Assembly (NCBI GenBank): GCA_965178125.1
Contig: OZ237736.1
Location: 310,001-374,000, forward strand
DNA: 64,000 nt
Direction: 5' to 3'
Source of the DNA: Bilabrum cf. latius
Lineage: Eukaryota
Each line of letters starts with the position of its first letter. Position 1 is the first letter of the stretch. Below the pieces are notes generated by a model that did no database searches, had not been told where the DNA came from, and saw only the letters and a program-made list of their open reading frames with translations. The translations under genes were made by a program, and so were the position numbers. Positions 212 through 63,750 of this stretch are shown piece by piece.

Positions 212-299
212 TAAGGCCATGCTGCGTGTATCCGATCCTTGTGTATCACACTGTATTGAGCGGGGTTTTTGAATCAACGAATAAGTAAGAACGTACTGG

Positions 300-20707: not shown

Positions 20708-23155
20708 TTAATCCTCCTCCACGACCATGTCCTGGATCTCCTTCCTATTTCCAGCCGCAAACGCGCTGATCTCTTCGATCCGAAGCCGGTCCCTGCTCAC
20801 CTCTTCCTGCTTGCGGCCGTCCACGGCGCGGTGCCTCTCGTCCTGGTCGTATTTCTTGACCTCGTCCAGCACAGCGAACACCTGGCCCAGTCGAGCCTCG
20901 GCAGCGGCGGCAATCATCCCATCCGCCGTGTCCCTGTCCCCCAGCATGGCCGCAAGATCCTCGGGCATGTCCACCAGCCGAACCCCCACCTTGCTCCCCT
21001 CGTCGTCCTCTTCGCCCTCTCCGCCCTCCCCTGCGGAACCATCCTGCGCGGCGCCATCGGAACCCATACCACCCATGGGCATCCCCCCATCCTACCCGTC
21101 GCCCCCGGCCGCCCCCCCGTCTGCGGAACCATCCCCTGATCCCGCGGCGCCCCCACTCCGAGCAGCAGCATCGTGCTGCGCCTTTGCTTCATCCACGGCC
21201 CGCTGGGCCGCGGCATCGGCCGTGCTGTCGGCTCGGATCACGGACAGGATCCGGGGATCTCTGATATTGTGCTTTGATAGGTGCGCTTTTAGGAGCTGCG
21301 GCGCCGCCGATTCCGGATCCTCGGCGTACCTTTCCACGAGCTGCATGATGTGTTCCTTGGAGTTTTTGCCGAACCAGTCCTCAAGGCTCACCGCCTCGTT
21401 GAGCGTGTTGTCCAGGAAAGCCCTCCTCTTGTCGCAGAGGTCGTTGAAGGCCGTGTGGAAGGCGTCCAGAACCGCCACGCAGGATTCGTGCAGCCTTAGC
21501 TCAAGGAGCAGGAGCCTGCCCCTCGTCTCCTCGTTCTTCTAGTGGGCCAGCTGGAGCAGCTCCAGGGCCTCGTCGGGACCCATCGCCTGGCCGTCCAGCC
21601 GGAAGACCGCTTGTTCCCTGGGTGTCAACTCGATTCCGAATAGGGGGTGCTCGGTCGGTCCGACGGCGCCTGCCTCGCTGCTGTCGGCGCCCCTGGAGGG
21701 TCCGCTGGAAGCACCAGCTCCACCTGCTGCTGCGGCCCCGCGGCCCTTGGTCGACGTCGATGCGTGTGACGAGTGAGCCTCCCCAATCTCGGCCTGGAGC
21801 TGCTTGATTTTGTGCCCCAGCCCTCCCGGAGCCGTCGTGTCCTCCTCTTCTAGCCTTCGCCGAACCTTCTTCAAAAAATTGCGGAACATGGAAGCGACCT
21901 GCATGCTCTCCAGGTCACTGGCCTCCCGCACCCTCCGAAGAGCCTCGTCCACGTCTCTCTCTTCTCGTTGAATGGCGTGGCCCATCACGGTCCCGCGCTC
22001 AAGAGCCCGAAGCACCACCTGTGTGACGGAGCGGGCGTACCGGGCCCAGTACACCTGCATGCCTGGGATGCGGAGCACGCGGTTTCGTGCGAGCAGAAGC
22101 TCTGACTCTGCCTCGGCGTCGATCAGGTCGTCTTCATCTTCGATTTCCTGCACTTCCTCCTCGTCATCGCCCCCAGCCCCCATGCTGCTTCCGCCCGCGG
22201 GCCGAGCACCTGCTCGGCTGCTCCCTGCTCGTGCTCGCCCCTCCTCGTGTTCGGTTTCTTTCATAAGCTTGCTCCCGTCGTCATCGTCCGGCTATCCCGA
22301 TATGCGGCCCCAGAGGCCGGCCAGGAAGTGCATGCCCAGCTTGTGCATCGCCGAGCGCTCGTCCTGGCGCCGCTTCACCTCCGCCTTTGCTTCGACCAGA
22401 CGCTCCTCTCGCATCCTCAGCGGCTCAGATTCCGTCACGTGAGCTTCCTCCGCAGCAGTTCGCTCCTCGCCGGTGATCGCGGTGTAGTCGAGCCACTTGA
22501 GCTGCGGCAATTTCGCGATGGTGATGCCTCTGTATTCGGGCTCCCGCTGGCACGCGTGAACGTTCCCAGAAATAGACAGGCACTTGAGCTTCGGCAAGCG
22601 CCGTAGGTGGGCGATCGAATCGAAGCTCTAGAAACTATTGTTGCCTAGCGTTAGAATCTGCAGCTGCGTCAAATGGCTCAGATTCTCACAACGCCTGATC
22701 TTGTTTGAGGCCAGTAGCAGGTCTGTCAGTTTCGTGTTGTGCGTGAGGTTCTCGATCTTCTCGATCCGATTGAACGAAAGATCGAGCTCCTCCAGATCGC
22801 GCAGCGTATCTAGCCCTTCTATCCGGGATATCCTGTTGTTGTCAAGCTTCAGGACTCGGAGGGATGTCAGCGCCCGCAAGTTCGCAATCGACAGGATCGA
22901 TCTGAAGGACAGCTAGACACTTGGCAACTTGTGCAACTCAAGCTAGGGGAAAACAGGTTTCGCATCAATCAAGGCCTTGAGATTCTTGCTCTGGGCAGCC
23001 GATGCTTGTGCCTACGCTGCCAGATCACGGGCCTCTTCCTCATACAGAATCTCATCCTCCCGTACCGCATCTCGTATCATCCTTTCATCGATAACCCCGT
23101 GATCAGGATCTCTCACTTTGATGGGCTCAACAGTATAGCGAAACAACGACGCCAT
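20708..23155 (-). CDS. DRC3: dynein regulatory complex subunit 3 (LRRC48)
   Basis: SDS22-like LRRs (LKLDNNRISRIEGLDTL..LDLSFNRIEKIENL), LRR cap LPQLKWLDY, coiled coil and C-terminal RDRLRIEEISAF. Seven TAGs; ends at TAA near the homologous C-terminus. Confidence 0.85.
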
Positions 23156-26370: not shown

Positions 26371-26519
26371 GCACAGCAAGGGAGGCTCGATCACTGGTGA
26401 CATGAAAGAATGCACGGCCCCTGAACTGATTCGAGCAGTGCGTGAACAGTGAAATTCAAACTTGAAATGTACAGGACACGAGCATCAAGTGGTAGTACAG
26501 TTTTTTTATTCTGATTGAG

Positions 26520-26705
26520 TGCATGAGCCTGGGCGTCTCCTGCTAGTTGCGAGAAAGACAGTGATGCTCGACCAGAGCTCACGGTAAGCTAGTACGACTC
26601 ATTGCAGGCTGCCAGAGAGGTCGGAGACAGCACGGCATCAAGGACCACATGACCCCTCGCCGATGCAGCACGGTCGGCACCAGTGGCCCCTGCCGCAAAC
26701 ACCTC
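26520..26705 (-). pseudogene. relic fragment of a diverged receptor paralog
   Basis: Encodes AASARGHVVLDAVLSPTSLAACNESY*LTVSSGRASLS, homologous to about 28020-28170. Confidence 0.8.
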
Positions 26706-27034
26706 TAAGTCTAGCCCATCCATATGGATCAGAGGACGAGGGCAGTGGACGATTTCAGTGCAACCACCAGTGCGGAGATTTGTATCACGATCCCAGTGGA
26801 TAGTAAAGCCGGTAATAATCAATGACACATCCATTTTCATCCAATGGTTCCATGCACGACTTGACACAGACGCAGTGCTGGTCTTCGGCACGGCAGGGCT
26901 GGTCCTGCCAGCTCACGTGGTGCAGCCCTGCCTGCAACCGCTCAGGTACACCAACCAGGTGCTGCTCCAACAACAGAACCTGATCCGAATAACACAATCA
27001 CAGACTGGGCTCCAGTGCCTCAAGACCTGCAGAC

Positions 27035-30000
27035 TCAAGGGTCTGCCTGCTCGCGAGATTCATCCGGAGATGCGTCGCTCCCTGGCACCTAGCTGTTGGC
27101 CGGTTTGTCCTCGTGGGCAGCTCGAGCAAAGTCAGGAGCTGTGCCTGGCTTGCTCGAGTCGCGTACCGGCTTGCCATGCGACCACATGGGAGACTGCCCC
27201 TGAAGAGCCCCGCTGCCGGATGGTCTGGCATATTCCAAACCAGCAGGATCTCCCGACTCGGTGCTGCGCTTGCCTTGGCTGGCAGTCCCAGGCTTTGACG
27301 ATGGGCCAGCAGCTTCTCGGCGATGCTCCACAGCTTCTTCCTCAGTGTCCACCAGTCCGGTTCGTCCACAGAGCCACTCCATCTTCGGACCAAAGACCCT
27401 TTCAAACACAGCGAATGCAGCTTTGAACCCGCCAAGGATACCCACTGTGAGACCCAAGATGGACGAGGCCACTTGAGCCAAGGTGTATGCTGGCGTGATG
27501 CTGGTCGTGGCAAACACTCCCGCTCGCGACATCTGGATGCTGAGCCTCGTCACCGTGCTGGCAGGATCGATGGCATCGACAGATCGAGTGGACGTTGCTC
27601 CGCTGCGCAGGTCTTGCACTCGGAAGCCCTCCACGCTCCTGGAGCTTCCAGTCCTCGTGTCGTCAAGCACATGACCGACCAACGCCACCTGCTCGGATCG
27701 AGCATCCAGCATCTCTTCCAGGTGCATGGTGGCGTTCGAAGTGAGTGGATCAGCTGATGGAGACACTGCAGTGCCGCTCACACTGGACCAGCGGCCTCCC
27801 GCGTCTTGCGTGGCCAGGCGCCAGCTGATCGCCTGCACGGCCCAGTGGGTGTCGAGGTCAAGCGAGGTGACCGCAGTTAGGCCGCAATCGTCACACATGG
27901 CACGAAGCCAGCACAGGGGTTGATCGAGCTGCTGATCATCAATGGACAGCTCCTACACGGTGGCGGTGGTTGCCAGTTGCAGCATCGAATGCGCTGGTGC
28001 GTCTCCTACCGGTGGCATGGAAGACAGCGATGCTCGGCCAGAGCTCACGGTAAGCTAGTACGACTCATTGCAGGCTGCCAGAGAGGTCGGAGACAGCACG
28101 GCATCTAGCGCCATGTTGTTCCTCGCCGATGCGGCTCTGCCGGCACCGGAGGCCCCTGCCGTAGCCACCTGCAGCCCATCCGTGGTGATGGAGTTGCGAT
28201 AGGCGAAGTCAAGCACCAGGGTAGTGGACGATGTCAGCGCCACCAGCACGGCCATGACGGTGAACCATCCACCCATTGCCGTGGTGATCCTCCTGACAGC
28301 GGCATACTCGACGGGCTTGTGTGCCTGCGCCATGCTGTCGATCATGCGGAGTCCCGTATGCATCGTTGGTCGAGCTGCAGGAACCAGCAGCAGGAGCAGT
28401 AGCACGCAGAGCACGCAGGTCGACACGATCCATGCAATGATGTCAACCTGAGATGCATCATCATCGCCTGCATCCCCACCGTTAGCCTCTTCCTCCGTTT
28501 CAGGCTCACCATTCGAGTCGCCTTGTCCGGGCTCTTGCAGACGCCGTGCAGCCACGCTGTCGCCCCTCAGTGCTGCCATCACCTTGGGGTCAACAACCAC
28601 CTCTGGGTCCATCTGCAGCCGCCTGCTGGACCCACTGGTGCTGTATCTGGTGGTCACAGCACTCGCGAATGCACCCTCGGCATCTCCGGGCAGTGGGATA
28701 CCTGCCATGGATTCCTGGAGCACAGCCACAGCAGGCACAGGCTCAGGGACACCGGGCAGGCACATCATGCCAGGATCGCTGCATTCCGGGGGACGATCGA
28801 CACACCCACTGGTGCTTGAATCGAGGATTGAATCTCCTGGACATCCCGAGCACATCGCCGAGCCGCTCTCGCTGCGCAGACCAGCTCCGCACGAAATGCA
28901 GCTTGATCTGAGAGCAGCGCCAGGACTTGGCATATAGGTGCCGCTCGGACACTGTGAGCACACACGTGATCCTAACACGGAGCTAGACACGGTGCCTGGC
29001 TCACAAGGTACACATGAAAGTACATTCCCGCCAGGCGAAGACGTGCCCGGCAAGCACGGATCGCACTCTTGTCCTGCCGAACCGCTTGGGCAAGAGACAA
29101 CGATGGCAATGCAATCAACTGCACTGGATGCTCCAGTTCCCACTGTAGTGGTTCCTTCGGGGCACTGAATGCAGGTCGATGACGACTCAGCTAGCATTGC
29201 TTCGCTGTAGGTGGCTTTGGGACACTCTTGAGCTCGCACACCGTCCTCGCAGTAGGCACCTGCAGGGCATTCCACGCACAGAATCCTCGACGCAAGTGAG
29301 TTCCCCAATACCTCTACAGTGGCTCGATATGTGCTAGTGCTGCACTCAGGTGCGACACTGTCCGGAGTCATCACCGTGGTAAGTTCAAACAGGTTTGCAA
29401 ATGGTTCGGCGTGCGACACCTCGATCGGGTTGTCCTGCAAATCCAGCGATTGCATAGCGTCATTGGGGGCACTAGACAGTTGAGGTAAGTAATCGATGCC
29501 GTTTCCACTCAAATCTACGGTCACTACCTTGTTGAGAGGTGACAGAGCGCCGTCCAAGAGCACAAAAGATCGATCACCCGATGACCCTACGACCCTGAGA
29601 TTCGTTAGTCCAGTTAGGCCGGCGAATGTTGCCTCGGTCCATACAGACCGGCGCAGATCCAGACCTTGCAGATCCAGAGTACGAAGACTGCCTGCAAATG
29701 CGCAGTCACGAAATCCATTCAGGGCCAGGTCCTGGGATTTGCCAAAGATACGCTAAATACCCTACGCCTTGACCGTAAGAGATACTAGAGACAAAGGACC
29801 GTCGAAGAATCCGCACGTGCCGTTCTCATCAGTAAAATCGGCTCCAAGGGTCAGCTATATCTCGGTCACATCTCTTAAGTGCTTGAATAGCCCAGTTGGT
29901 CCTGCTTGCAGCAATGGGGCATCAAGCTCAAAACGACGAGGACTGCCGTGAGCGCCTAAAAAAGCGTCCTCGTGCACACGCTGCAGTCCAGGTGCATCGA

Positions 30001-33000
30001 TGTATACTCCGGATGACGCCAAAGCGCCGGCGAAAACACCCAAGCCTGCATCCTGCAGCCTTGATGGCAGCGTGATGGACGTCAGGCCCGTCAGCCCCCG
30101 CAGTGCGCCTGCATCCAGACTCGACACCTGCGTCACGGACAGGTCCAGCGACTGCAGGCCGGATGGGCCCGATCCGTCCTCGGCCGATGTGAAGGCGTCT
30201 GGCTCGATGGTGCTGATGGTCGATGGCAGCGTGATGGACGTCAGGCCCGTCAGCCCCCGCAGTGCGCCTGCATCCAGACTCGACACCTGCGTCATGGACA
30301 GGTCCAGCGACTGCAGGCCGGATGGGCCCGATCCGTCCTCGGCCGATGTGAAGGCGTCTGGCTCGATGGTGCTGAGTCCCTACGGCAGCGTGATGGACGT
30401 CAGGCCCGTCAGCCCGCGCAGCGCGCCTGCATCCAGACTCGACACCTGCGTCATGGACAGGTCCAGCGACTGCAGGCCGGATGGGCCCGATCCGTCCTCG
30501 GCCGATGTGAAGGCGTCTGGCTCGATGGTGCTGAGACCCTACGGCAGCGAGATGGACGTCAGGCCCGTCAGCCCGCGCAGTGCACCCGCATCCAGACTCG
30601 ACACCTGCGTCATGGACAGGTCCAGCGACTGCAGGCCGGATGGGCCCGATCCGTCCTCGGCCGATGTGAAGGCGTCTGGCTCGATGGTGCTGATGGTCGA
30701 TGGCAGCGTGATGGACGTCAGGCCCGTCAGCCCCCGCAGTGCGCCTGCATCCAGACTCGACACCTGCGTCATGGACAGGTCCAGCGACTGCAGGCCGGAT
30801 GGGCCCGATCCGTCCTCGGCCGATGTGAAGGCGTCTGGCTCGATGGTGCTGAGACCCTACGGCAGCGAGATGGACGTCAGGCCCGTCAGCCCGCGCAGTG
30901 CACCCGCATCCAGACTCGACACCTGCGTCATGGACAGGTCCAGCGACTGCAGGCCGGATGGGCCCGATCCGTCCTCGGCCGATGTGAAGGCGTCTGGCTC
31001 GATGGTGCTGATGGTCGATGGCAGCGTGATGGACGTCAGGCCCGTCAGCCCGCGCAGTGCGCCTGCATCCAGACTCGACACCTGCGTCATGGACAGGTCC
31101 AGCGACTGCAGGCCGGATGGGCCCGATCCGTCCTCGGCCGATGTGAAGGCGTCTGGCTCGATGGTGCTGAGTCCCTACGGCAGCGAGATGGACGTCAGGC
31201 CCGTCAGCCCGCGCAGTGCGCCTGCATCCAGACTCGACACCTGCGTCATGGACAGGTCCAGCGAGTCCAGGCTCTCGGCCGATGTGAAGGCGTCTGGCTC
31301 GATGGTGCTGATGGTCGACGGCAGCGTGATGGACGTCAGGCCCGTCAGCCCGCGCAGTGCACCCGCATCCAGACTCGACACCTGCGTCATGGACAGGTCC
31401 AGCGACTGCAGGCCGGATGGGCCCGATCCGTCCTCGGCCGATGTGAAGGCGTCTGGCTCGATGGTGCTGAGTCCCTACGGCAGCGAGATGGACGTCAGGC
31501 CCGTCAGCCCGCGCAGTGCGCCTGCATCCAGACTCGACACCTGCGTCATGGACAGGTCCAGCGAGTCCAGGCTTTCGGCCGATGTGAAGGCGTCTGGCTC
31601 GATGGTGCTGAGTCCCTACGGCAGCGTGATGGACGTCAGGCCCGTCAGCCCGCGCAGTGCGCCCGCATCCAGACTCGACACCTGCGTCATGGACAGGTCC
31701 AGCGACTGCAGGCTGGATGGGCCCGATCCGTCCTCGGCCGATGTGAACGCGTCTGGCTCGATGGTGCTGATGGTCGATGGCAGCGTGATGGACGTCAGGC
31801 CCGTCAGCCCGCGCAGTGCGCCTGCATCCAGACTCGACACCTGCGTCATGGACAGGTCCAGCGACTGCAGGCCGGATGGGCCCGATCCGTCCTGGGCCGA
31901 TGTGAAGGCGTCTGGCTCGATGGTGCTGATGGTCGATGGCAGCGAGATGGACGTCAGGCCCGTCAGCCCGCGCAGTACACCTGCATCCAGACTCGACACC
32001 TGCGTCATGGACAGGTCCAGCGACTGCAGGCTCTCGGCCGATGTGAAGGCGTCTGGCTCGATGGTGCTGATGGTCGATGGCAGCGTGATGGACGTCAGGC
32101 CCGTCAGCCCGCGCAGTGCGCCTGCATCCAGACTCGACACCTGCGTCATGGACAGGTCCAGCGACTGCAGGCCGGATGGGCCCGATCCGTCCTCGGCCGA
32201 TGTGAAGGCGTCTGGCTCGATGGTGCTGATGGTTGCAGGCATTAGAATTGCTTCTAGCGATCGATTGTCAGATGCGAGACTATGCCGCGGAATCTTAGTG
32301 AGGTTGGAGCACCTTGAGATGTCGATGGTTCGTAGCCTTGGTGCGCCACGAGCGAAATTCGCAGGCAGCCCGGTGAGGTCAGCTGGTAGTACAATGGTCT
32401 CCAGCGATGTCCAACCGGCAAGAACTGGCGTTGCCCGGTCCATTGGCCACTATGATGCGACAGATGTAGCCGACAAATTTAGAGTTGTCACAGAGGTGTC
32501 AGCAAGTATGGCATCAAACCGGACAGTTGGCGGCTAGCACGATACGGGTACCGACCATGCCTGCACGCTCGATGGTGGGTTGGTCTGACCAGCTGCATTC
32601 CTCCCGAAGCAGTGCATCTTGCCAGTGCCTGCCTCGATCCCGCACGTGTAATCATAGCTGGCAGACACGGCGGACCATGCCTGCACGTTTGATGGTGGGC
32701 TTGACTCGGAATCTCGGTTGGACCCGAAGCAGTACATCTTGCGAGTGCCTGCCTCGATCCCGCACGTGTGCCCATAGCCGGCAGACACGGCGGACCATGC
32801 CTGCACGCTCGATGGTGGGCTTGACTTGGACTCATGGTTGGACCCAAAGCAGTACATCTTGCCAGTGACTGCCTCGATACCGCAGGTATGCCCATCGCCC
32901 GTAGACACGGCGGACCATGCCTGCACGCTTGATGGTGGCGTGGCCCTGGAATCAGGGTTGTACCCGAAGCAGTGCATCTTGCCGTTGCCAGCCTCGATTC

Positions 33001-33514
33001 CGCAGGTATAAGACCCACCTACAGCCACGGCGGACCATGCTTGGACACTTGGTGGTGGGCTTGACTGGGAATTTGAGTTGGACCCAAAACAGTGCATCTT
33101 GCCAGTGTTTTTCTCGATGCCACAAGTGTGCATACTACCAGCAGCCACGGCGGACCAGGCGTGAACACTCGATGGTGGAGCGGTCTGAGAGGTTCCTTCG
33201 TTTCCTTCGTTACCAAAACAGTGCATCTTGCCAGTGCCTGCCTCGATCCCGCAGGTATGCGAATAGGCCGCAGACACGGCAGACCATGCCTGCACGCTCG
33301 ATGGTGGAGTGGCCTTCGAAAATTCATTGTCTCCGAAGCAGTGCATCTTGCCAGTGCCTGCCTCGATACCACAGGTGTGAGTTCCGCCTGCCATCCCAAG
33401 CGACTAGCGTTCATGGAAGTCTTCGCACCAGTCTTCGCCCATCACTTGCACAGCCATTAAAAGGGCCGCCCCCAGGAACAAAACACCTGCATGCTCTGAT
33501 TTAATCGGAGGCAT
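27035..33514 (-). CDS. surface receptor-like protein copy 1, about 2159 aa: signal, 7 RCC1-like repeats, 14 BspA-type LRR units, LRRs, Cys-rich repeats, 3 TM segments
   Basis: Single frame from ATG33514 (MPPIKSEHAGVLFLGAALLMAVQVMG) to TGA27035, interrupted only by TAG. Confidence 0.88.
30063..32235 (-). repeat. coding tandem array: 11 x 159 bp plus 3 x 141 bp LRR units
   Basis: Unit STISTIEPDAFTSAEDGSGPSGLQSLDLSMTQVSSLDAGALRGLTGLTSITLP; short units lack 6 codons of the DGSGPSG loop. Confidence 0.95.
32560..33394 (-). repeat. 7 RCC1/BLIP-II-like repeats (~40 aa), copy 1
   Basis: Seven WSAV.aGxx(H/Y)TCGIE..tGKM(H/Y)CFG units. Confidence 0.85.
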
Positions 33515-33886
33515 CGATGGTGTTGGGTCAGCGATGTGCCACGAAGTTTGTGGCTGGGTGAAGGGCTGCCTGGGTGATAAATTGGGTGTGGGTGAAATAA
33601 ATCCGGAATCCGGCTCCGGAAAAGCGAAGTTGTTACGGAACCTCATCATGTTGGTTTGCGCGGCGACCTGGTTCATCAGAAGTCACCGTCAGCTCGTGGA
33701 TTCTCGTGAGACAGTAATCTAGGCTTTTTCATTGTTTCGATTGATTCTAAACAAGTGTAAGTACCAATGATGGTGGTAAACTGGTCGAATTTTCCCAGAC
33801 GGGCGAACATGCACACCGCCGCCTGGCCATCAGTTGCATCCCTAGATATATATTTTCATCTACCGCAGCGGGTACAACACTCAGCC

Positions 33887-34029
33887 ATGGCAGCATCCGG
33901 GGCTGGATAGGATGCTTCAGTGCCCCGGCAAGGCTAGCAACTTCATGGAGAATCAGGGCCCCTTCAGCAGCTTCGTAGGACGTTTGCCTTTGCTCGATCG
34001 TAAGACTTTAGATGGCCTCGCCAGGTGCA
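33887..34029 (+). pseudogene. orphan duplicate of exon 1 of the TPR gene
   Basis: ATGGCAGCATCCGGGGCTGGATAG...GCTCGATC|GTAAGA matches 43190-43333; homology stops inside the intron. Confidence 0.8.
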
Positions 34030-34419
34030 TGGTGGTTTGCGCGGCGACGCGGCGTCGACAGGCAAAGAAATCCCCGACAGCTCGTAAGTTAGGCACCGTA
34101 ATTGTTTCGATGAATTCAAATAATTCAAAGCCGTATGGGGCTCGTGGTTGATGTTGCGATGCGTTCGAGACTCGAACACAGGCTCCAGTCTACCAAAGCG
34201 AGGTTGCAACCGCCAGTGCGACCAGCAGCGAGGCATTCCCTCGTCTCCTTCCTTAAGGGGGGAGGCGGGGCAGCGCGGCAGAGGCCGTTTCGGCTCATGC
34301 CGTTGTTTAATCTCTTGTTTACGTCCGGTTTGGCGCTTGATACTACCAATGATGGCGATGAACTGGTCGAATTCTACCAGATACAGGCGCAAATGCAGGC
34401 TGCTGACTTTTTTCTGATT

Positions 34420-34607
34420 GCGTGCATGAGCCTGGGCGTCACCTGCCAGTTGCGAGGAAGACAGTGATGCTCGACCAGAGCTCACGGTAAGCTAGTACGA
34501 CTCATTGCAGGCTGCCAGGGAGGTCGGAGACAGCACGGCATCCAGAACCACATGGCCCCTCGCCGATGCAGCACGGTCGGCACCAGTGGCCCCTGCCGCG
34601 AACACCT
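34420..34607 (-). pseudogene. second copy of the relic receptor fragment
   Basis: Close match to 26520-26705. Confidence 0.8.
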
Positions 34608-35254
34608 GTAGGGCTAGGTACGTGAGAGGATCGTACCTCTAAGGCTGAGATCGTGCGCTGGGCACAGCGCTCGGGCGAGTCGACAAGTCGTGTGCCGTGA
34701 TTGAGGTGCAGGGAAAGGTGGCTTGGTGAAATGCAAGAAAGGTGGACAAGGTGGAAGGGGTGGGTGAAGCGGGAGGGACAGACAGTGCAGGAATGTGGGA
34801 AGGGGACGGTCGTGCCTAGGGGTTCCGGGTAACGATGGGGGGTAGGAGAGGATACAATACCCCCATCAGGATGCACCCATCAGAAGACGAGGGCAGTGGA
34901 CGATATCAGTGTTACCACCACGATGTCAGTGCAACCACCAGCCTGAGGGCCATCACTTCACGAGAAAGATAATGAGCGACAGAATTGATTCTTTACACGT
35001 TGCAGCGATTTGTATCACGATAGTAAAGCCGGTAATAATCAATGACACATCCATTTTCATCCAATGGTTCCATGCACGACTTGACACAGACGCAGTGCTG
35101 GTCTTCGGCACGGCAGGGCTGGTCCTGCCAGCTCACGTGGTGCAGCTCTGCCTGCAACCGCTCAGGTACACCAACCAGGTGCTGCTCCAACAACAGAACC
35201 TGATCCGAATAACACAATCACAGACTGGGCCCCAGTGCCTCAAGACCTGCAGAC

Positions 35255-38200
35255 TCAAGGGTCTGCCTGCTCGCGAGATTCATCCGGAGATGCGTCGCTC
35301 CCTGGCACCTGGCTATTGGCCGACTCGTCCTCGTGGGCAGCTCGAGCAAAGCCAGGAGCTGTGCCTGGCTTGCTCGAGTCGCGTACCGGCTTGCCATGCG
35401 ACCACATGGGAGACTGTCCCTAAAGAGCCCCCTTGCCGGATGGACTGGCATTTTCCAAACCAGCAGGATCTCCCGACTCGGTGCTGCGCTTGCCTTGGCT
35501 GGCAGTCCCGGGCTTTGACGATGGACCAGCAGCTTCTCGGCGATGCTCCACAGCTTCTTCCTCAGTGTCCACCAGTCCTGTTCGTCCGCATAGCCACTCC
35601 ATCTTCGGACCAAAGAACCTTTCAAACACAGCGAATGCAGCTTTGAACCCGCCAAGGATACCCACTGTGAGACCCAAGATGGACGAGGCCACTTGAGCCA
35701 AGGTGTAGGCTGGCGTGATGCTGGTCGTGGCAAACACTCCCGCTCGCGACACCTGGATGCTGAGCCTCGTCACCGTGCTGGCAGGATCGATGGCATCGAC
35801 AGATCGAGTGGACGTCGCCCCGCTGCGCAGGTCTTGCACTCGGAAGCCCTCCACGCTCCTGGAGCTTCCAGTCCTCGTGTCGTCAAGCACATGACCGACC
35901 AACGCCACCTGCTCGGATCGAGCATCCAGCATCTCTTCCAGGTGCATGGTGGCGTTCGAAGTGAGTGGATCAGCTGATGGAGACACTGCAGTGCCGCTCA
36001 CACTGGACCAGCGGCCTCCCGCGTCTTGTGTGGCCAGGCGCCAGCTGATCGCCTGCACGGCCCAGTGGGTGTCGAGGTCAAGCGAGGTGACCGCACTAAG
36101 GCCGCAGTCGTCACACGTGGCACGAAGCCAGCACAGGGGTCGACCGAGCTGCTGATCATCAATGGACAGCTCCTGCACGGTGGCGGTGGTTGCCAGTTGC
36201 AGCATCGAATGCGCTGGTGCGTCTCCTACCGGTGGCATGGAAGACAGCGATGCTCGGCCAGAGCTCACGGTAAGCAGGTACGACTCATTGCAGGCTGCCA
36301 GAGAGGTCGGGGACAGCACGGCATCCAGGACCATGTTGTTCCTCGCCGATGCGGCTCTGCCGGCACCGGAGGCCCCTGCCGTGGCCACCTGCAGCCCATC
36401 CGTGGTGATGGAGTTGCGATAGGCGAAGTCAAGCACCAGAGTTGTGGACGATGTCAGTGCCACCAGCACGGCCATGACGGTGAACCATCCACCCATTGCC
36501 GTGGTGATCCTCCTGACAGCGGCATACTCGACGGGCTTGTGCTCCTGCGCCATGCTGTCGATCATGCGCAGTCCCGTATGCATCGTTGGTCGAGCTGCAG
36601 GAACCAGCAGCAGGAGCAGCAGCACACAGAGCACGCAGGTCGACACGATCCATGCAATGATGTCAACCTGAGATGCATCATCATCGCCTGCATCCCCACC
36701 GTTAGCCTCTTCCTCCGTTTCAGGCTCACCATTCAAGTCGCCTTGTCCTGGCTCTTGCATGCGCCGTGCAGCCACGCTGTCCCCCCTCAGTGCTACCATC
36801 ACCTTGGGGTCGACAACCACCTCTGGATCCATCTGCAGCCGCCTGCTGGACCCACTGGCGCTGTAGCTGCCAGTCGCAGCACTCGCAAATGCACCCTCGG
36901 CATCTCCGGGCAGTGGGATACCTGCCATGGATTCCTGGAGCACAGCCACAGCAGGCACAGGCTCGGGGACACCGGGCAAGCACATTGTGCCAGGATCGCT
37001 GCATTCCGGGGGACGATCGACGCACTCACTGGTGCTTGAATCGAGGATTGAATCTCCTGGACATCCCGAGCACATCGCCGAGCCGCTCTCGCTGCGCAGG
37101 CCAGCCCCGCACGAAATGCAGCTGGAAGCAAGGGCAGCGCCAGCAAACGGCATGTGTGTTCCTATTGGACATTTGGAGCATGCGAATGATCCCTGCTTGG
37201 AGACAGACGCAGTGCCCGGCTAGCAAGTCTCGCAGGACTGCGTGTTACCACCAGGCGAAGACGTGCCCGGCAGACACGGCTCGCAGTTTTGACCGGCTTT
37301 GCCGCGAGGACAAGAGACGACGACGGCGATGCAATCAACTGCACTGGCTGTTCCGGTCCCCACTGTTGTGGTTCCTTCGGGGCACTGAATGCAGGTCGAT
37401 GACGAGTCGGCTAGCATTGCTTCGCTGTAGGTACCTTTGGGACACTCTCGCACCTGCAATCCATCCTCGCAATAGGCACCTGCAGGGCACTCCACGCACA
37501 TGATTTCGGTCGTTGCACTGCCCAGTATCTCCACGGGCGCTTTGTAGGTGCCAGTGCTGCACTGAACTCCCACACTGTCCGAGAGATCGACTCTTCCCAG
37601 CTCAAACAGGTTGGCGAATGCATCTGGGTGCGACATTCTGATCGGGTTGTTGCTGAAGTCTATCCCCTCCATTGCATCATTCGCTGTGAAGGACAGCTGC
37701 GGCAGATAATCAATCCCATTGCCTGTTAAATCTACCGTCACGACATTAGCGAGGGGGGACAGCGCTCCATCTAGAAGCTGGAACGATTTATCACCAGAGG
37801 ACCCCACGATCCGAAGAGATGTGAGTCTGCTCAGGCCAGCAAATGTTTCATCCGTCCATGCAGACCGGCGCAGATCCAGACCTTGCAGATCCAGAGTACG
37901 AATACTGCCCGCAAATGCGCAGTCTCGAAATCCATTGAGGGCCAGGTCCTGCGATTTGCCGAATACACGCTGTGCGCCAGGCGCCTGGATGGACAGGGAA
38001 GCGAGGGAATCGAGACCGTCGAAGAATCCACACGTGCCGTTCTCAACGGTAAAATCGGCTCCAAGGGTCAGATACACCTCGGTCACATCTTTTAAGTGCC
38101 TGAATAGCCCAGTTGGTCCTGCTTGCAGCAGCGGAGCATCAAGCTCAAAACGACGAGGACTGCCGTGAGCACCCAGGAATGCGTCCTCATGCATACGCTG

Positions 38201-41200
38201 CAGTCCTGGTGCATCGATACGCAGTTGCTCCGATGATGATGCGCCTTCCAAAAGACCCTCTCCTGCCTCCTACATGCTCGATGGCAGCGAGATGGACGTC
38301 AGGCCCGTCAGCCCGCGCAGTGCGCCTGCATCCAGACTCGACATCTGCGTCATGGACAGGTCCAGCGACTGCAGGCCGGATGGGCCCGATCCGTCCTGGG
38401 CCGATGTGAAGGCGTCTGGCTCGATGGTGCTGAGACCCGACGGCAGCGAGATGGACGTCAGGCCCGTCAGCCCCCGCAGTGCGCCTGCATCCAGACTCGA
38501 CACCTGCGTCATGGACAGGTCCAGCGACTGCAGGCCGGATGGGCCCGATCCGTCCTCGGCCGATGTGAAGGCGTCTGGCTCGATGGTGCTGATGGTCGAT
38601 GGCAGCGTGATGGACGTCAGGCCCGTCAGCCCGCGCAGCACGCCTGCATCCAGACTCGACACCTGCGTCATGGACAGGTCCAGCGACTGCAGGCCGGATG
38701 GGCCCGATCCGTCCTCGGCCGATGTGAACGCGTCTGGCTCGATGGTGCTGATGGTCGATGGCAGCGTGATGGACGTCAGGCCCGTCAGCCCGCGCAGTGC
38801 GTCTGCATCCAGACTCGACACCTGCGTCATGGACAGGTCCAGCGACTGCAGGCCGGATGGGCCCGATCCGTCCTGGGCCGATGTGAACGCGTCTGGCTCG
38901 ATGGTGCTGAGTCCCTACGGCAGCGAGATGGACGTCAGGCCCGTCAGCCCGCGCAGTGCGCCTGCATCCAGACTCGACACCTGCGTCATGGACAGGTCCA
39001 GCGACTGCAGGCCGGATGGGCCCGATCCGTCCTGGGCCGATGTGAAGGCGTCTGGCTCGATGGTGCTGAGACCCGACGGCAGCGAGATGGACGTCAGGCC
39101 CGTCAGCCCGCGCAGCACGCCTGCATCCAGACTCGACACCTGCGTCATGGACAGGTCCAGCGACTGCAGGCCGGATGGGCCCGATCCGTCCTCGGCCGAT
39201 GTGAACGCGTCTGGCTCGATGGTGCTGATGGTCGATGGCAGCGTGATGGACGTCAGGCCCGTCAGCCCGCGCAGTGCACTTGCATCCAGACTCGACACCT
39301 GCGTCATGGACAGGTCCAGCGACTGCAGGCCGGATGGGCCCGATCCGTCCTCGGCCGATGTGAAGGCGTCTGGCTCGATGGTGCTGAGACCCGACGGCAG
39401 CGTGATGGACGTCAGGCCCGTCAGCCCGCGCAGTGCGCCTGCATCCAGACTCGACACCTGCGTCATGGACAGGTCCAGCGACTGCAGGCCGGATGGGCCC
39501 GATCCGTCCTCGGCCGATGTGAAGGCGTCTGGCTCGATGGTGCTGATGGTCGATGGCAGCGTGATGGACGTCAGGCCCGTCAGCCCGCGCAGTGCGCCTG
39601 CATCCAGACTCGACACCTGCGTCATGGACAGGTCCAGCGACTGCAGGCCGGATGGGCCCGATCCGTCCTCGGCCGATGTGAAGGCGTCTGGCTCGATGGT
39701 GCTGAGTCCCTACGGCAGCGAGATGGACGTCAGGCCCGTCAGCCCGCGCAGTGCGCCTGCATCCAGACTCGACACCTGCGTCATGGACAGGTCCAGCGAC
39801 TGCAGGCCGGATGGGCCCGATCCGTCCTCGGCCGATGTGAAGGCGTCTGGCTCGATGGTGCTGAGTCCCTACGGCAGCGTGATGGACGTCAGGCCCGTCA
39901 GCCCGCGCAGCGCGCCTGCATCCAGACTCGACACCTGCGTCATGGACAGGTCCAGCGACTGCAGGCCGGATGGGCCCGATCCGTCCTGGGCCGATGTGAA
40001 GGCGTCTGGCTCGATGGTGCTGATGGTCGATGGCAGCGAGATGGACGTCAGGCCCGTCAGCCCCCGCAGTGCGCCTGCATCCAGACTCGACATCTGCGTC
40101 ATGGACAGGTCCAGCGACTGCAGGCCGGATGGGCCCGATCCGTCCTGGGCCGATGTGAATGCCTCTCTGGCTATGCTTGTGAGATTGACTGGCAGCGTGA
40201 TGGACGTCAGGCCCGTCAGCCCGCGCAGTGCGCCTGCATCCAGACTCGACACCTGCGTCATGGACAGGTCCAGCGACTGCAGGCCGGATGGGCCCGATCC
40301 GTCCTCGGCCGATGTGAACGCGTCAGGCTCGATGGTGCTGATGGTTGATGGCAGTATAATCGCTTCTAGCGATCGATTGTCAGATGCGAGACTATGCCGC
40401 GGAATCTTAGTGAGGTTGGAGCACCTTGAGATGTCGATGGTACGTAGCCTTGGTGCACCACGAGCGAAATTCGCAGGCAGCCCGGTGAGGTCAGCTGGTA
40501 GTACAATGGTCTCCAGCGATGTCCAACCGGCAAGCACTGGCGTTACCTGGTCCATTGGCCACTGTGATACGACAGATGTAGCAGAGAAGTTTAGAGTTGT
40601 CACAGAGGTGTCAGCAAGTACGGCATCAAACCGAACAGTTGGCGGCTTGCACGATACGGTTACCGACCATGCCTGCACGCTTGATGGCGGGCTGGACTTG
40701 GACTCATAGTTGGACCCGAAGCAGTGCATCTTGCCAGTGTCTGCCTCGATCCCGCAGGTGTGACCACTGCCAGCAGACACGGCGGACCATGCTTGCACAC
40801 TCGGCGGTGGGCTGGACATAGAATTGGAGTCGGACCCGAAGCAGTGCATCTTTCCAGTGCCTGCCTCGATCCCGCAGGTATGGTCATAGCCGGCAGATAC
40901 GGCTGACCATGCCTGCACGCTCGATGGTGGGCTGGACTGGGAAGTATAGTCGGACCCGAAGCAGTGCATCTTGCCAGTACCTGCCTCGATTCCGCAGGTA
41001 TGAGTCCCGCCCACACCCACGGCGGACCATGCCTGCACGCTTGATGGTGGCGTGGCCCTGGAAAACCAGTTGGACCCAAAGCAGTGCATCTTGCCATTGC
41101 CTGCCTCGATCCCGCAGGTATGGTCTTCGCCAGCAGACACGGCAGACCATGCCTGCACGCTTGATGGTGGGCTGGTCTTTGGCAGAGATCTGACTCCATT

Positions 41201-41635
41201 GTCCGCAAAACAGTGCATCTTGCCAGTGTTCTTCTCGATCCCACAAGTATGAAATTCGCCCGCAGATACGGCGGACCATGCTAGCACGCTTGACGGTGGA
41301 GTGGTCCGAGAGGTTCCATTGGATCCTTCGTAACCAAAACAGTGCATCTTGCGAGTGCCTGCCTCGATGCCGCAGGTATGAGCTCCACCCGCAGCCACGG
41401 CAGACCATGCCAGCACGCTCGATGGTGGAGTGGACTTCGAAAAACTATTGTCTCCAAAGCAGTGCATTTTGCCAGTGCCTGCCTCAATTCCACAGGTGTG
41501 AGATCCGCCTGCCATCTCAAGCGACTAGCGTTCATGGAAGTCTTTGCACCAGTCTTCGCCCATCACTTGCACAGCCATCAAAAGGGCCGCCCCCAGGAAC
41601 AAAATACCTGCATGTCTTGTCTAAATAGCAGGCAT
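35255..41635 (-). CDS. surface receptor-like protein copy 2, about 2126 aa, 13 LRR units
   Basis: Single frame from ATG41635 (MPAI*TRHAGILFLGAALLMAVQVMG) to TGA35255, interrupted only by TAG; collinear with copy 1. Confidence 0.88.
38280..40347 (-). repeat. coding tandem array: 13 x 159 bp LRR units
   Basis: Same unit as 30063-32235; one unit carries the divergent VNLTSIAREAF variant. Confidence 0.95.
40665..41515 (-). repeat. 7 RCC1/BLIP-II-like repeats, copy 2
   Basis: Seven GxxHTCGIE..GKMHCF(G/A) units. Confidence 0.85.
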
Positions 41636-41797
41636 CGATGGTGCTGGGCTAGCGATGCGCCACGAAGTTTATGGCTGGGTGAAGGGCTACCACTGGGTGA
41701 TAAATTGGGTGTGGGTGAAATAAATCCGGAATCCGGCTCCGGAAAAGCGAAGTTGTTACGGAACCTCATCATCATGGTGGTTTGCGCGGCGACCTGG

Positions 41798-48839: not shown

Positions 48840-49415
48840 TTATCTTCGCAGCTGGGAAACATCGCTGTCAAATACTAAATTTTTCATTTCCTCCTGAACG
48901 TCTCGCGAGGTAGATGCCCCGGTGCGCTTCCCTTGTGATGCTGCTCCTGGCACGGGAGAGCCAACGTGCCTAGCTGTCATTGTTCGGCACAGACTTGGTG
49001 GCAGCGCTCTCTATGCACTCCTGTTGACAACTGCTCCCGCATACGACCCACTTGGCTATATGCTACAAAGAACTAGGGGTCTATCGGAATTCATCGTGTG
49101 GCGCACGGCAGCGGGAGCGAATCCGCTAGAAGCTGCAATAATGCCCACGGATGCAGTCACCGAGGATTTTTGGCCATCGAACTGGGCCAACGATCCTTCC
49201 AGCTCCCGCACCGACTTGACAGGAAGAGGTTTGCTAGTTCTTTTGCACTACACAGCTATCGTCGTGTTTTGTGGACCATCACCAAGCAAGTCAATCCCAC
49301 CATCCGAAGGACCCCCGACGCGCAGGAAACTGGCGACACGAAGTCGCTGCAAAGTAGCCCCAACTACGTGCTCATATTCGGTTCCTGCAGCCACAAAGCT
49401 TTTCCATCGCCGCAT
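48840..49415 (-). CDS. RRG7/DUF2034-like, Mrr-type PD-(D/E)xK nuclease-fold protein
   Basis: GTEYE..RVGGPSDGGIDL..IAV*CK..VRELEGSL..VGIIAASSGF matches the family with *=Q. Ends at TAA. Alternative starts at 49451 and 49508. Confidence 0.85.
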
Positions 49416-49529
49416 CCTTGCCAGCAGTGCACAATTCGCGCAGTTGCACATGGTGATTTTTCGAAGCCGGGTGACGAGCAACTTAATTTGGCTCTGCAGC
49501 CCGACCATATCTTATCTTTCTCTTACACA

Positions 49530-51078: not shown

Positions 51079-54000
51079 TCAGTCCCAGTCATCCACCGCG
51101 CCGCCCGCCCCGCCCTTGGCAGCGTTGCGGATCTGTGGCTAGTCCCTGTACATGGTGGCCACCTGTTCCGCCGACGTCGCAGCCTCCGCCGCTTTGTCGT
51201 CCCTGACCCGAAGCAGCCTGGGGAACCGAAGAGCGATGCCCTTGCTGCTGTGGACGATGCCCACGGCCGCGCGGTGCACCGGGGATATGCTCAGGTCGGC
51301 GGCCTTGATCTCCCACACAGCCTTCGGCTCGAACCACACCTCCGGCTCCATGTTGGAGTCGATGCCCATGGGCTTCTTGGGACGGATCAGCTCGTTCTCA
51401 TTGAAATACTTGGTGAACTCCTGCAGCTGCTCGTCGGAAAAACCAGTGCCCACCCTCGTGACGCTCTGGAAGCTCTCGTCCTCCTGGCTGTAGCACGCCA
51501 GGAGGTACGCCCCGTAGGTGCCGGACCTCTTCCCCTTGCCGTGCCAGGCCCCAATGGGCACCAGATCGAACGAGTCAGTCAGCCCATCCATGTAGTCCTT
51601 CTTCAGCTTGAGCCAGTTGAGGCTGCGCCTGCTGGGCAGGTACGTCGCGTTCGAGTCCAGCGTCTTCACCATGAGCCCCTCGCAGTTCTGCTCAACGGCC
51701 TCGTTCAGGAACATGCCGATTTCCTCCAGCTCGCTGCCGTCGGAGCCCTTGGCGAAGGCGAACTTGCCCTCGACCTCTCTGAAGTGCGTGTGCAGCAGCT
51801 GGCGCCTCTGCCGCAGCGGCAGCCGGATGAGCGACTGGCCGTTGAGGTACAGGAGGTCGAAGGCGCAGTAGATCACCTTGACGCCTACGTCCTCAGCCTT
51901 CACGTCCTTCCTGGCCCTGCGACTGAGCTCCTGGAACGGGAGCAGCTGCTTGCGGACGCGGTCGTACGCCACCACCTCGCCGTCGAGAACGAAGCTGCCG
52001 CCCTCCGCTGAGGTGCCGGTGACAGCCGTGCCAGACGCAGGCACAGTGGCTCCTGCTGCCTATGATGAGGACGACGACGACGAGGATGACGATGACGAGG
52101 ATGAGGATGAGGATGAGGATGAGGATGAGGATGATGATGATGACGAAGCACTGGACGTGGATGATTGCGCCGCTGATGATGACGCTGATGAGGAGGAGGC
52201 CGCTGCCGCAGGCTTAGCGGCATCTGCCGCAGAAGAAGCGGGAGAAGGCTCTGCCGGCTTGGCCTTGGCCTTGGGCTTGGACCCGAAGAAGCTCATCATG
52301 GTCTTTGCCTTGGGCTTCTTGGCGGCCTTGTCTACTCCCCCACTGGCCGCCTTGCCAGCAGCGTCCCCGCCTACTGCTGCCTTCTTCTTGGACGAAGCAT
52401 CTCCTTTCGACGCTTGTGCAATCGTACCAATGTACGCCTCCCGGATCGCCAAGCCAATGTCGGGATACTTGATCGAGGTGTCCTCACTGTTGCGGCTGAA
52501 GCACCCAATCTCACCGTTGGGAGTACAGTGGACCTGCGCACGCTCTCCGTCGTACTTGTACTCGCAGGTGAAGCTGACGCCGCTGAACCGGTCCAGCACC
52601 TCTCCCACGCTCTTGGTTGGCTTGGCGAGCATGGGCGAGACGGGGACCCCGGGCTTCAGGTGGCACCGAACGCGCGCCGCTGGCACGCCGCCTTCCAGCA
52701 GCGCCGGGATGATGTCGTTGTACGAGGGCATCTCGCTGTGGATCTGCTTGATCTCTTCCACAGCCGCCTCCACCTCCATGTTTGCCGTGGACCGAATCCT
52801 CAGCGTCTTCGGGCTCCTCCGGGCATCCAGCCTCAGTGCATAGGACCCGGCCTCCCCGCCGGCTTCTGGCATCGCCGGAGGTGGGAGACCGGCTGCCCCT
52901 GCGACCGATGCAGGCGCGCTAGCTGCGGCAGAGGCACCGGCACCGCTGCTGCTGCCACCAGCTGCCTGAAGCGCCTCCAAGGCGTACGCAGCGAGTAGCC
53001 TGCGCATGGGGATCAGTGCCGCATTTGAGGCAGCTGCCTTGTCTCTCCTCTTTGACGCGGCCGACTTCTCCCCCTTGCCCGTTCCTTTGTCTTTGCCCTT
53101 GCCGGCCTTGGCCTTCCCTGCCTCCTCGTCCTCGTCCTAGTCGCCGTCCTGGCTGCTGACATCGTCCTCATCATCGTCATCATCGAGCCCGTCATCATCA
53201 TCATCCCTCATGGAAGCAGTTCCAATGGACGCTGTTTCTGCTGCCATCGAGACGGCGTCTTCGCCGTCCTCGCCCTTGGTGGCCCTGGCTGAGACACCAG
53301 ACTCGCTCGCACCGACGCCGCCATCAGGACCACCAGCATCGCCAACAGCCCCGGTGGCCGATGCAGCAAGAAGTGCCGAAATGTCCGGTCTCCGCTCGCC
53401 CAAATGCTACGAGAGCGCGCTGTCTGCTTTCGAGCCAGCCATCACGTGGGCTGCCACCGGTGTGTTGGGAGGCGTGATGGCGATTGCTTGCGCCAGTGCC
53501 ACCAGCACGGTCCTCTCCGCCAACCCGATCCTCAGCTTGCACTGGAGTCCACGGATTAGAAACCTGGCCTCGTGGCCCTTGGGCTTGCATGCCAGTAGCA
53601 TGCCCTTGATCCTGGCAGTTTTCTTGTCCTGGCTCGCCTTCCCAGACTCCATGGCAATCGCTTTGAACTCCTTAAACACCTTTCGCAAGGTCAGCGGCTT
53701 GGGCTGCATCAGGGACCGCTGGGAGCCCTTGGATTCCTCTGCTACAAGACCGAGGTCTCCCAGGACCGGCACCCGGGATCGAACCTGCGCGAGGGGCCTC
53801 CCTGTTCCCTGGGAAATAGATTTTCCGATGATAGAGTCCCCGATCCCCAGCTCGAGCCCCTCGTGGGGTGGCGCCAGCCTCGTGCATGCCAGGTTGACGG
53901 CGGGGAGCAGGTCCTCCGGGGACAGCGCAATCACGGAGCGGAAGAAATCTCGCAGGATGGCCGTAATGCCGAGCCTGCGCAAGTGAAGAGATCGTGGCGA

Positions 54001-54665
54001 GTGGTGGCCGTTGCTCGTTCAATCGTGTGCATGTCGACACAGTACCGGCAGAGGGGCGGCAAACACCCCGTTCGATCGGAGAATCGAGACGAAATAATTT
54101 ACGTTGGAATCAAACGGTTTGGGTCTCACCTGCTGGGCTCGTCCTCGATTTTCTTGAGAGTCTGCGCGAACTGGAAATACGGCACGGGCGATCCGATGGA
54201 CCAGCCTGCGTCAGCGACAGGGTCGTACTCGCCCTTCGTCACGCTGCTGGTCTCGTCTCCAACTTGGCCTCCGCTGCCAGCACCGGATGAAGGCGCCGAC
54301 GCTTCTCCTGCCTTTTTTGCTTCAGAGGAACCGGATACTTCGACGCCAGTCGCAGCCGACGATGGCTTCGAAACAGCTGATTTCTTCTTTTCGCCCGAGG
54401 ATCGAGGCTGAAAGAAGCTGTGCAAGCCAGAACTAGCCTGCGGCTCCGTCTTGGCGCGTTTGGCTTCCGGGGCATCGTCCGCTGAAGCCCGCGGACGCTT
54501 CTCTCCGGGAGAGGCAACTGCTTCGTTCTCGTCGTCGGATTCGATGGCAACTCGGCCTGCACCTGCGCCGTTGGCTACACCCTCTGGTCTCAATACGCCT
54601 TCATCATCGCTATCAGCGACTTTGGAAGCGCTTTCACGAGACAAGCTGGCGCTCCTGCGAAGCAT
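51079..54665 (-). CDS. LIG1: DNA ligase I; exons 54665-54130 and 53974-51079
   Basis: ELGIGD, PMLAKPT, EYKYDGERAQ, VLDGEVVA, AFDLLYLNG, EGLMVK, WLKLKKDY and ALRFPRL motifs. Four in-frame TAGs; ends at TGA. Confidence 0.95.
52063..52147 (-). repeat. poly-Ser coding microsatellite in a ligase insertion
   Basis: (GAT/GAG/GAC)n on + reads as a TCA/TCC/TCG run on -. Confidence 0.9.
53975..54129 (-). other. spliceosomal intron, 155 nt
   Basis: GTGAGA...TTGCGCAG; the join gives KIEDEPSRLGITAILRDFFRSVI, the expected LIG1 DNA-binding-domain sequence. Confidence 0.88.
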
Positions 54666-55061
54666 ACGAACGGTGACGCCCCTTCAAACAATCTTAGAAT
54701 GAATGCTTCTTTTGTACTAGATGATGAAATCATAAATTTAAGCTAGATCTTACATGTTTAGAACAGCAGCGCGGTGTAGCTTTGACAGGTGGATACTAAT
54801 TTGCGGCCAGGAGTTGCGATTTGCGATTGCCCTGATCCCCTATTCAACTCGAAGCTTGGATATCAAACCCTGCGATGATCGCCCAGCAACTCGTCCCAAC
54901 TTCTGGATTCGATGGAGAGCCGCGATACTGACCTAGATTTGGAATCTTGTGCGATGCTTGCAAATTTTGAAACCATGGCGGCGCCGCGCAACTGCAGGTT
55001 CCGCAATAGCTCCACAGATGGACTGGACAGGACCACGGGTGTTTCAGGTGAGCAGCGCCAT

Positions 55062-63400: not shown

Positions 63401-63750
63401 ATTCCGGTACTCACTGCTGTGTCAAACAGAAACATTGAGGCCAGGTACATCCGTGATTTGGACGTGTCCAAGAAGGCCAGGCCGCACAATGCCAGCATGC
63501 CATGCAGAAGAAACGCACTTGACAGGGCGGCGTGCATAACTCTATCTGAGAAATCGACTGGACCCGTGCAATCCTGAGACAGTACGAAGCAGGTCGTCGT
63601 GAAGCTCCAAAAGCAACAGAGCGCTGACAGTATCAGCATGGTCAGGTACAATATCCATTCATCAAAAAAATTAGACACCATACCAATGCTGGAATAGGCA
63701 CTTGCCCTATCCGTTGCGATCCGCCTTTGGGAAAGGATATATATCTTCAT
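60430..63750 (-). CDS. multi-TM hybrid sensor histidine kinase (HisKA, HATPase_c, REC)
   Basis: H-box YIFHEARVPLQAV, N-box NLVSNALKFT, G1 VSDTGCGI, G2 SSGLGLYIS, GKGSTFSF, and REC VVDD..MDKSMPVMDG..GKP. Domains are joined across TAGs; ends at TGA. Start uncertain (63861, 63750 or 63681). Confidence 0.9.

Follow-up and report, generated by a model that had tools for sequence, protein, structure and literature searches.

Changes of the nuclear genetic code that affect UAG and leave UAA untouched are very rare, the cases described in the available portions of two papers being the fornicate Iotanema spirale, one rhizarian and a few phyllopharyngean ciliates (PMC5304391, PMC11687900). In Iotanema UAG alone has come to encode glutamine, with UAA kept as the primary stop (PMC5304391, available part), and the same single change has putatively occurred in the phyllopharyngeans Hartmannula sinica and Trochilia petrani (PMC11687900, available part); as far as these texts cover the point, UAA is the primary or preferred terminator in the other UAG-reassigned lineages (PMC5304391, PMC11687900). 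UAG is read as leucine in the rhizarian known as exLh and in uncultivated phyllopharyngeans (same sources, to the same extent), and the accessible section of a further paper describes bacteriophages, crAss-like and others, that read TAG as glutamine under code 15 (PMC9523058). Here we analyse a window of 64,000 nucleotides (positions 310,001 to 374,000 of contig OZ237736.1, catalogued as Bilabrum cf. latius; coordinates below count from the first letter of this stretch), in which two tandem paralogs on the minus strand, paralog A (27035..33676) and paralog B (35255..41635), carry numerous in-frame TAG codons. We conclude, with a probability that we put at roughly 0.86, that in the cytoplasmic translation of the nuclear genes of this organism TAG encodes glutamine while TAA and TGA serve as stops, the pattern of NCBI table 15. 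This is the reading that the original prediction had drawn from the two paralogs, and it stands, with its decisive support coming from outside the pair.

Codes of the table 6 type, in which both UAA and UAG specify glutamine, are found in many ciliates, in hexamitin diplomonads and in other groups. They share UAG=Gln with the window and differ from it in that TAA is not a sense codon here (48 to 54 occurrences in the off-frames of its open reading frames (ORFs), 0 in frame). Akin to the window, Iotanema has reassigned only UAG, and to glutamine, although this metamonad is anaerobic, is known through a transcriptome and uses UAA as its main stop (PMC5304391, as far as available). The window, by contrast, has a GC content of about 60%, a DNA ligase gene that groups with stramenopiles and TGA as main stop (14 of 17 ORFs). 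Hartmannula and Trochilia differ from it as well, since its genes do not group with those of ciliates and mostly end in TGA. Its stop preference as a whole (14 TGA, 3 TAA) is unlike the UAA preference of those lineages in the text of the two papers that was at hand (PMC5304391, PMC11687900). The UAG=Leu codes resemble the window in having decoupled UAG from UAA (same two papers, same limit), yet leucine fits poorly here (−7.4 nats in homolog columns and 1 of 17 changed paralog columns, both described below). As to the code-15 phages, the window is unlike them a eukaryotic nuclear locus with spliceosomal GT..AG introns, a DNA ligase I gene and an axonemal DRC3-like gene (dynein regulatory complex subunit 3). 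Full-text literature searches, whose scope left out subscription journals and bioRxiv supplements, returned no stramenopile in which UAG encodes glutamine; PMC6733595 concerns, in its available part, plastid codes only. The code variant itself is known, and the lineage apparently adds a new member to it.

Long ORFs lie densely on both strands of the window and are open only when TAG is read through. Seventeen ORFs with a total of 16,762 codons contain 99 in-frame TAG and not a single in-frame TAA or TGA, while the two off-frames of the same ORFs contain TAG 131 and 99 times, TAA 48 and 54 times and TGA 317 and 334 times. TAG is present in 16 of the 17 (the exception being the chorismate synthase coding sequence (CDS)), and the terminators are TGA in 14 and TAA in three. 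The zero counts for TAA and TGA are partly circular because the ORFs were delimited by these codons; that the ORFs are genes despite this circularity is argued by their lengths, their Pfam domains and the contig evidence presented below. Glutamine codon counts are 448 for CAG, 149 for CAA and 99 for TAG, and from the CAA:CAG ratio about 33 in-frame TAA would be expected if TAA were also read as glutamine. With none seen in 16,762 codons and three ORFs stopping at TAA, a table 6-type code (UAA and UAG both glutamine) was rejected.

The paralogs on which the original prediction was built are genuine genes that look expressed and that encode large surface proteins. The ORF of paralog A comprises 2213 codons, among them 15 TAG and neither TAA nor TGA, that of paralog B comprises 2126 codons, among them 8 TAG, and both stop at TGA. 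They share a layout in which a signal-like hydrophobic segment is followed by seven RCC1-like blades, an array of BspA-type leucine-rich repeat (LRR) units of about 53 amino acids (14 in A, 13 to 14 across the copies), more LRRs, a Cys-rich ephrin-receptor-like region and a membrane-spanning C-terminal domain that has no Pfam name. Pfam matches in paralog A are LRR_8 (3e-80), LRR_5 (3e-77), RCC1_2 (7.8e-21) and Ephrin_rec_like (2.6e-8), with similar matches in B, so that both copies show the LRR_5/LRR_8, RCC1_2 and ephrin-receptor-like Cys-rich features of BspA-type LRR/RCC1-repeat surface proteins. The tandem duplication unit extends over 26504..33671 and 34408-41797, with about 90–94% DNA identity that drops to 75–79% in the RCC1 part. 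Downstream of each paralog lies a fragment of about 170 nt (26529-26695 and 34432-34608) that is about 84% identical to internal coding segments (27990-28180 and 36210-36400).

In a codon alignment of A and B, 1637 of the 2111 aligned codons are identical and 1861 specify the same amino acid, and 20 columns have TAG in at least one copy. Three of these TAGs are shared, six are paired with CAG, five with TCG, and one each with AAG, AAA, GAG, TAT, CCT and CTG, a scatter of partners over K, E, Y, L, P and S that had been described before. The six TAG/CAG swaps, rechecked in this alignment, are all present at the coordinates given earlier and run in both directions. Copy A has the TAG in four (27089..27091 opposite CAG at 35309-35311; 27953..27955 opposite 36173-36175; 29753..29755 opposite 37970-37972; 32450..32452 opposite 40562-40564) and copy B in two (CAG at 27200..27202 opposite TAG at 35420-35422; CAG at 30053..30055 opposite TAG at 38270-38272), all on the minus strand. 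One shared TAG, at 33404..33406 in A and 41525-41527 in B (minus strand), falls in the first RCC1-like blade, 12 residues past the hydrophobic signal-like segment, agreeing with the earlier statement that a TAG just after the signal peptide is common to both copies. Two more that had escaped notice lie within the LRR array (31616/39869 and 31475/39710). The single TAG/CTG column (TAG at 28055..28057 of A, CTG at 36275 of B, minus strand) has TAG also in both downstream fragment copies, i.e. in 3 of 4 copies; TAG is therefore the older state there. The five TCG partners go back to the way in which two types of LRR unit fall in register, 'LPqGLST' with TAG (six units in A, three in B) and 'LPSTIST' or 'LPSGLST' with TCG, and are for this reason not five independent events. 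CAA/TAA and CGA/TGA swaps, which at equal frequency had been named as grounds for abandoning the idea, number zero each in this alignment, and neither TGG nor TTG occurs opposite TAG (0 each).

How far does this pair carry the glutamine reading? TAG/CAG swaps occur in 6 of 52 columns (six swaps and 46 conserved), more often than swaps in the remaining first-position C/T classes that change the amino acid (3 of 433; Fisher p=7.5e-5) and than synonymous Leu CTR/TTR swaps (4 of 158; p=0.016). On the other side, the non-synonymous His/Tyr C/T swaps, five of 35, are as frequent as those between TAG and CAG (p=0.75), and five of six His/Tyr-type swaps fall at variable positions of the RCC1-like blades. 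In the face of this control, the contention that the paralogs constitute an internal proof with no need of external data cannot be maintained. A comparison of dN/dS, which had been proposed as a check and which we carried out by the Nei-Gojobori method under eight readings of TAG, gave a similarly mixed answer. Glutamine yields the lowest value in every partition, but the readings are barely separated (0.359 overall for glutamine, 0.367–0.373 for E, K, Y, L, S or W; 0.223 in the C-terminal third, 0.268–0.281 for the others), and the margins are too small to decide.

More was gained from asking what share of the differing TAG columns would be synonymous under each reading, compared with the differing columns that lack TAG, of which 218 of 457 (47.7%) are synonymous. 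With glutamine the count is six of 17 changed columns, which is typical (P 0.22), and five of the 11 that lie outside the array. Lysine accounts for two of 17 (P 0.002; 2/11 outside the array), glutamate, tyrosine or leucine for one of 17 each (P 0.0003; 1/11), and tryptophan for none (0/17 and 0/11). A heuristic column score based on BLOSUM62 also placed glutamine first (29.9, against 15.4 for glutamate), a lead that is due to the six CAG pairs and the ligase column described below. The hydropathy of neighbouring residues, compared between TAG and each amino acid, was uninformative, its standard error being too large, and counts by eye of glutamine neighbours and of TAG followed by Leu gave no excess. 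On sequence grounds, then, the pair moderately favours glutamine.

The decisive columns lie in conserved homologs. The DNA ligase I gene (51079..54755, minus strand; CDS 54753-54755, the ATG, then 54129-54653 and 51079-53973; stop TGA) contains four TAG, one of which (51139..51141, minus strand, residue 948 of the ORF 51079-53982) occupies an invariant-glutamine column, Gln being found in 120 of 120 homologs and also in human LIG1. Less constrained are the columns of the DRC3-like gene (20708..23155, minus strand; seven in-frame TAG, stop TAA), where the TAG at 22913-22915 and that of residue 155 stand opposite R/Q/K and that of residue 250 opposite K/E/N/T/S; the NMT1-61 TAG is opposite D/E and residue 340 of a PYCR-like protein opposite N. 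For the C-terminus of the paralogs a HMMER search against 1.84 billion representatives returned 63 matches at E<=1e-3, 32 of them at E<=1e-10. In this family Gln is the commonest residue in the column of the 28055 TAG (4 of 16 members), while in the column of the 27953 TAG four of 14 members have Gln and five have Thr. When profile emission log-odds were summed over 10 TAG columns of three families in the window, glutamine led with +7.23 nats, followed by T (+2.46), R (+2.14), K (+1.46) and E (+1.17), with Y (−5.0), L (−7.4) and W (−9.0) far below.

Additional support came from a related organism. When JGI metagenome contigs were searched with just the one protein sequence of the paralog C-terminus, no relative came up, and a search with an eight-row family alignment retrieved two contigs, L001 (11.5 kb, 57% GC) and L002 (5.1 kb), which belong to different contig sets and share 99.96% DNA identity over all 5,148 bases of the latter. 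The ORFs concerned (1-6738 and 7036-11466 in L001, 3-5147 in L002) show the same pattern of TAG as a sense codon. One ORF of L001 is a full homolog of the paralogs that shares 779 of 1949 aligned residues with paralog A, and the 32 in-frame TAGs of the contig (23 in this homolog, nine in the neighbouring ORF) are accompanied by no in-frame TAA or TGA in 3,721 codons, both ORFs stopping at TGA. Over six TAG columns of the C-terminal domain glutamine again scored highest (+5.01 nats, against +3.05 for S; L −5.3, Y −4.4, W −6.7), and it is the modal residue in two of the six (6 of 18 members each). For window and L001 together, the sum is 7.23 plus 5.01 nats for glutamine and at most 4.7 for any other residue. 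Several members of the family in protein collections are truncated in a telling manner: P0259 and P0261 correspond to parts of the L001 protein, P0259 terminating right before an L001 TAG; P0248 terminates right before a column with Gln in 13 of 13 other members; and P0264, an ORF fragment, terminates exactly at the 27953 column. Family fragments end at TAG/Gln columns, and standard-code gene calling chops the genes of this lineage.

We also looked for the window in public sequencing runs. The stretch 51000-60300 was found in eight runs from four studies, and four of these (X1, X5, X6 and X8) were compared with 48900-64000. The contigs of X5, X6 and X8 are gene-sized, while X1 is the likely DNA source. 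X5 and X6 contigs skip 53974-54128, X5 and X8 contigs skip 54654-54752 (with a short side of 29 in X8), and one X5 contig skips 63320-63412; none of these three joints occurs in the DNA-like run X1. The skipped pieces have CT..AC ends on the plus strand and thus GT..AG ends on the minus strand of the genes, which makes them introns of 155 nt (53974-54128) and 99 nt (54654-54752, directly after the ATG) in the DNA ligase I gene and of 93 nt (63320..63412) in the hybrid histidine kinase gene at 60430-63864, all on the minus strand. Once joined, the ligase pieces form a single open frame whose N-terminus is typical of ligase I. None of the counted in-frame TAGs is inside the introns seen, which are few and measure 93–155 nt. 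X5 records 11 and 13 span ORFs that contain TAG and show 0 differences over them, four variant places in all are listed (60557, 60582, 62329 and 62347) and none falls within a TAG codon, and X5 contigs end 33–138 nt past TGA or TAA terminators. Because the spliced X5, X6 and X8 contigs are unchanged at TAG codons, UAG appears to be kept in spliced RNA, an interpretation drawn from contigs only and with RNA and DNA labels of the runs that are guesses; X5 itself carries the label 'RNA? (probably DNA)', which counts against it.

In the scheme that we favour, cytoplasmic translation would read UAG as glutamine, presumably through a tRNA-Gln with anticodon CUA, and would still terminate at UAA and UGA with an eRF1 that has probably lost recognition of UAG. 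TAG and CAG, which this code makes synonyms separated by a single C/T transition, would then drift into each other in both directions between gene copies. A number of observations weigh against this scheme, most of which would favour one or another of the alternatives considered below. Two of them concern the decoding machinery: ARAGORN detected no tRNA genes in the window or in L001 and L002, and Pfam scans of the window did not find an eRF1 gene.

The alternative that survives best, although we consider it unlikely, is that TAG does specify an amino acid, but a polar one other than glutamine (Glu, Lys, Ser, Thr or Arg). Some ciliates and trypanosomatids are known to use UAR=Glu and UAA=Lys. 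Just one TAG of the window sits in an invariant column, the TAG columns outside the ligase being merely polar, and when the ligase column is dropped the lead of glutamine becomes thin (4.59 nats, with T at 3.22 and R at 2.39). Similarly, when the six CAG pairs are removed the BLOSUM62 ranking of the paralog partners is K>E>Q, and the TAGs of L001 often stand opposite Ser or Glu of A or B. Serine, in particular, is opposite TAG five times as TCG and is not rejected when the array is counted (5 of 17 synonymous, P=0.10). These five pairs derive, however, from the two repeat-unit types mentioned above, and outside the array serine accounts for none of 11 changed columns (P=0.0006), glutamate for one and lysine for two. 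No other polar residue matches the ligase column, with Gln in all 120 homologs, or the log-odds summed over window and metagenome contig.

It is quite unlikely that TAG is ambiguous, being mostly glutamine but still stopping translation at certain places, as happens in some ciliates whose codons act as stop or sense depending on context. In the CN-hydrolase ORF (23289-24758) a TAG lies eight codons ahead of the TGA and past the usual end of the domain, and occasional termination at TAG is therefore possible. Against this, a TAG within the last 20 codons is seen in three of 17 ORFs, where about two are expected from TAG density. Of these three, the ligase TAG is clearly read through, as a conserved motif follows it, and so is the late TAG of paralog A that is opposite CAG in B, the tail being identical. 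Moreover, every one of the 17 ORFs has its own TGA or TAA terminator, beyond which the X5 contigs end.

Very improbable is a hydrophobic or aromatic residue (Trp, Tyr or Leu), although UAG=Leu and UAR=Tyr codes exist. For tryptophan speaks the shared TAG at 33404/41525, which is in blade register with a Trp that is invariant in 12 of 12 other RCC1-like blades; the first blade aligns as 'ERqSLG' with 'QAWSAV', and TAG=Gln would leave it without Trp. For tyrosine speaks the residue-362 TAG of the DRC3-like protein, opposite Tyr/Phe in 61 of 69 homologs and adjoining an indel, and among the paralog columns there is one TAG/TAT and one TAG/CTG pair. Finally, a sub-threshold MIT match (E=0.02) sets one TAG after a Tyr, at a position whose consensus in MIT domains we take to be hydrophobic. 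These three misfits (the Trp register, DRC3-like residue 362 and MIT) are weak and alignment-dependent, and are set against many supporting points. All three residues score negatively in the homolog columns of the window and of L001, they explain at most one of 17 changed paralog columns (P 0.0003 or less), TGG and TTG are never TAG partners, and the ligase column is invariantly Gln. Leucine in particular is disfavoured as a match for TAG (−7.4 nats in the window, −5.3 in L001).

The absence of any code change (pseudogenes, assembly errors, introns or UAG-to-CAG RNA editing) has a negligible chance of being correct, as nothing specific speaks for it beyond the fact that introns do occur, whereas TAG in 16 of 17 ORFs with TAA and TGA never in frame is an asymmetry that refutes it, X1 (DNA) and the transcript-like runs alike match the window at the TAGs, such introns as were observed are few, short and free of counted TAGs, and an independent metagenome assembly has the same pattern.

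The window is nuclear DNA of a compact, intron-poor eukaryote, with a GC content that ranges from about 55 to 67%. Pfam domains in its ORFs are those of DNA ligase I, chorismate synthase, CN hydrolase, NMT1/THI5, histidine kinase and LRR/RCC1, and its further genes encode the DRC3-like LRR protein, a hybrid histidine kinase, a TVP23/DUF846 protein and an Sm-like protein. When 104 small ORFs from the gaps were scanned with Pfam, the only additions were DUF846 and LSM, whose conserved parts are devoid of TAG; an Rfam scan of the window had 0 matches, and PDB sequence searches returned nothing for the MIT-like and GT1 ORFs. The DUF846/TVP23 gene (around 15600-16580) is apparently divided over two frames, and the Sm-like gene (16786-17073, minus strand) seems truncated at its 3' end. 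Long low-complexity inserts are present in two conserved enzymes, the ligase I at 51079-53982 (a run of more than 30 Ser and acidic and Ala-rich stretches) and the chorismate synthase at 17120-19018 (Ser/Ala-rich). An inverted duplicate of 300 nt with 87% identity (2170-2464 and 26235-26529) comprises the 3' end of an NMT1/THI5-like gene with its downstream flank, the last approximately 40 encoded residues being identical.

As to the host, the ligase of the window is just 58–63% identical to its best homologs, and a FastTree analysis of 121 ligase rows placed it, on a long branch (0.7), inside a 35-row clade (SH-like support 99) that includes Hondaea fermentalgiana, two labyrinthulomycete MMETSP entries and Blastocystis. 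This single-gene tree provides a lead, towards a host that may belong to the heterotrophic stramenopiles (Bigyra); with one gene and one quick method, the stramenopile position is a lead rather than a placement. In light of it, we tentatively entertain, at somewhat less than even odds, that UAG alone was captured by glutamine in an independent and undescribed event in Bigyra-like heterotrophic stramenopiles, a lineage that would be GC-rich, use UGA as main stop, comprise at least two related organisms (one of them environmental) and have its proteins chopped at TAG in public collections.

For work on other genomes, TAG/CAG swaps between paralogs are a useful flag that needs a control, such as His/Tyr swaps, and some columns from outside the pair. 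Annotation of this host or its relatives under the standard code cuts short almost every gene, as P0259 and P0248 exemplify. A GC-rich, non-ciliate case with genes ending mainly in UGA would be an independent data point on how the decoding of UAG can be uncoupled from that of UAA, and it bears on whether the capture of a stop codon needs AT pressure.

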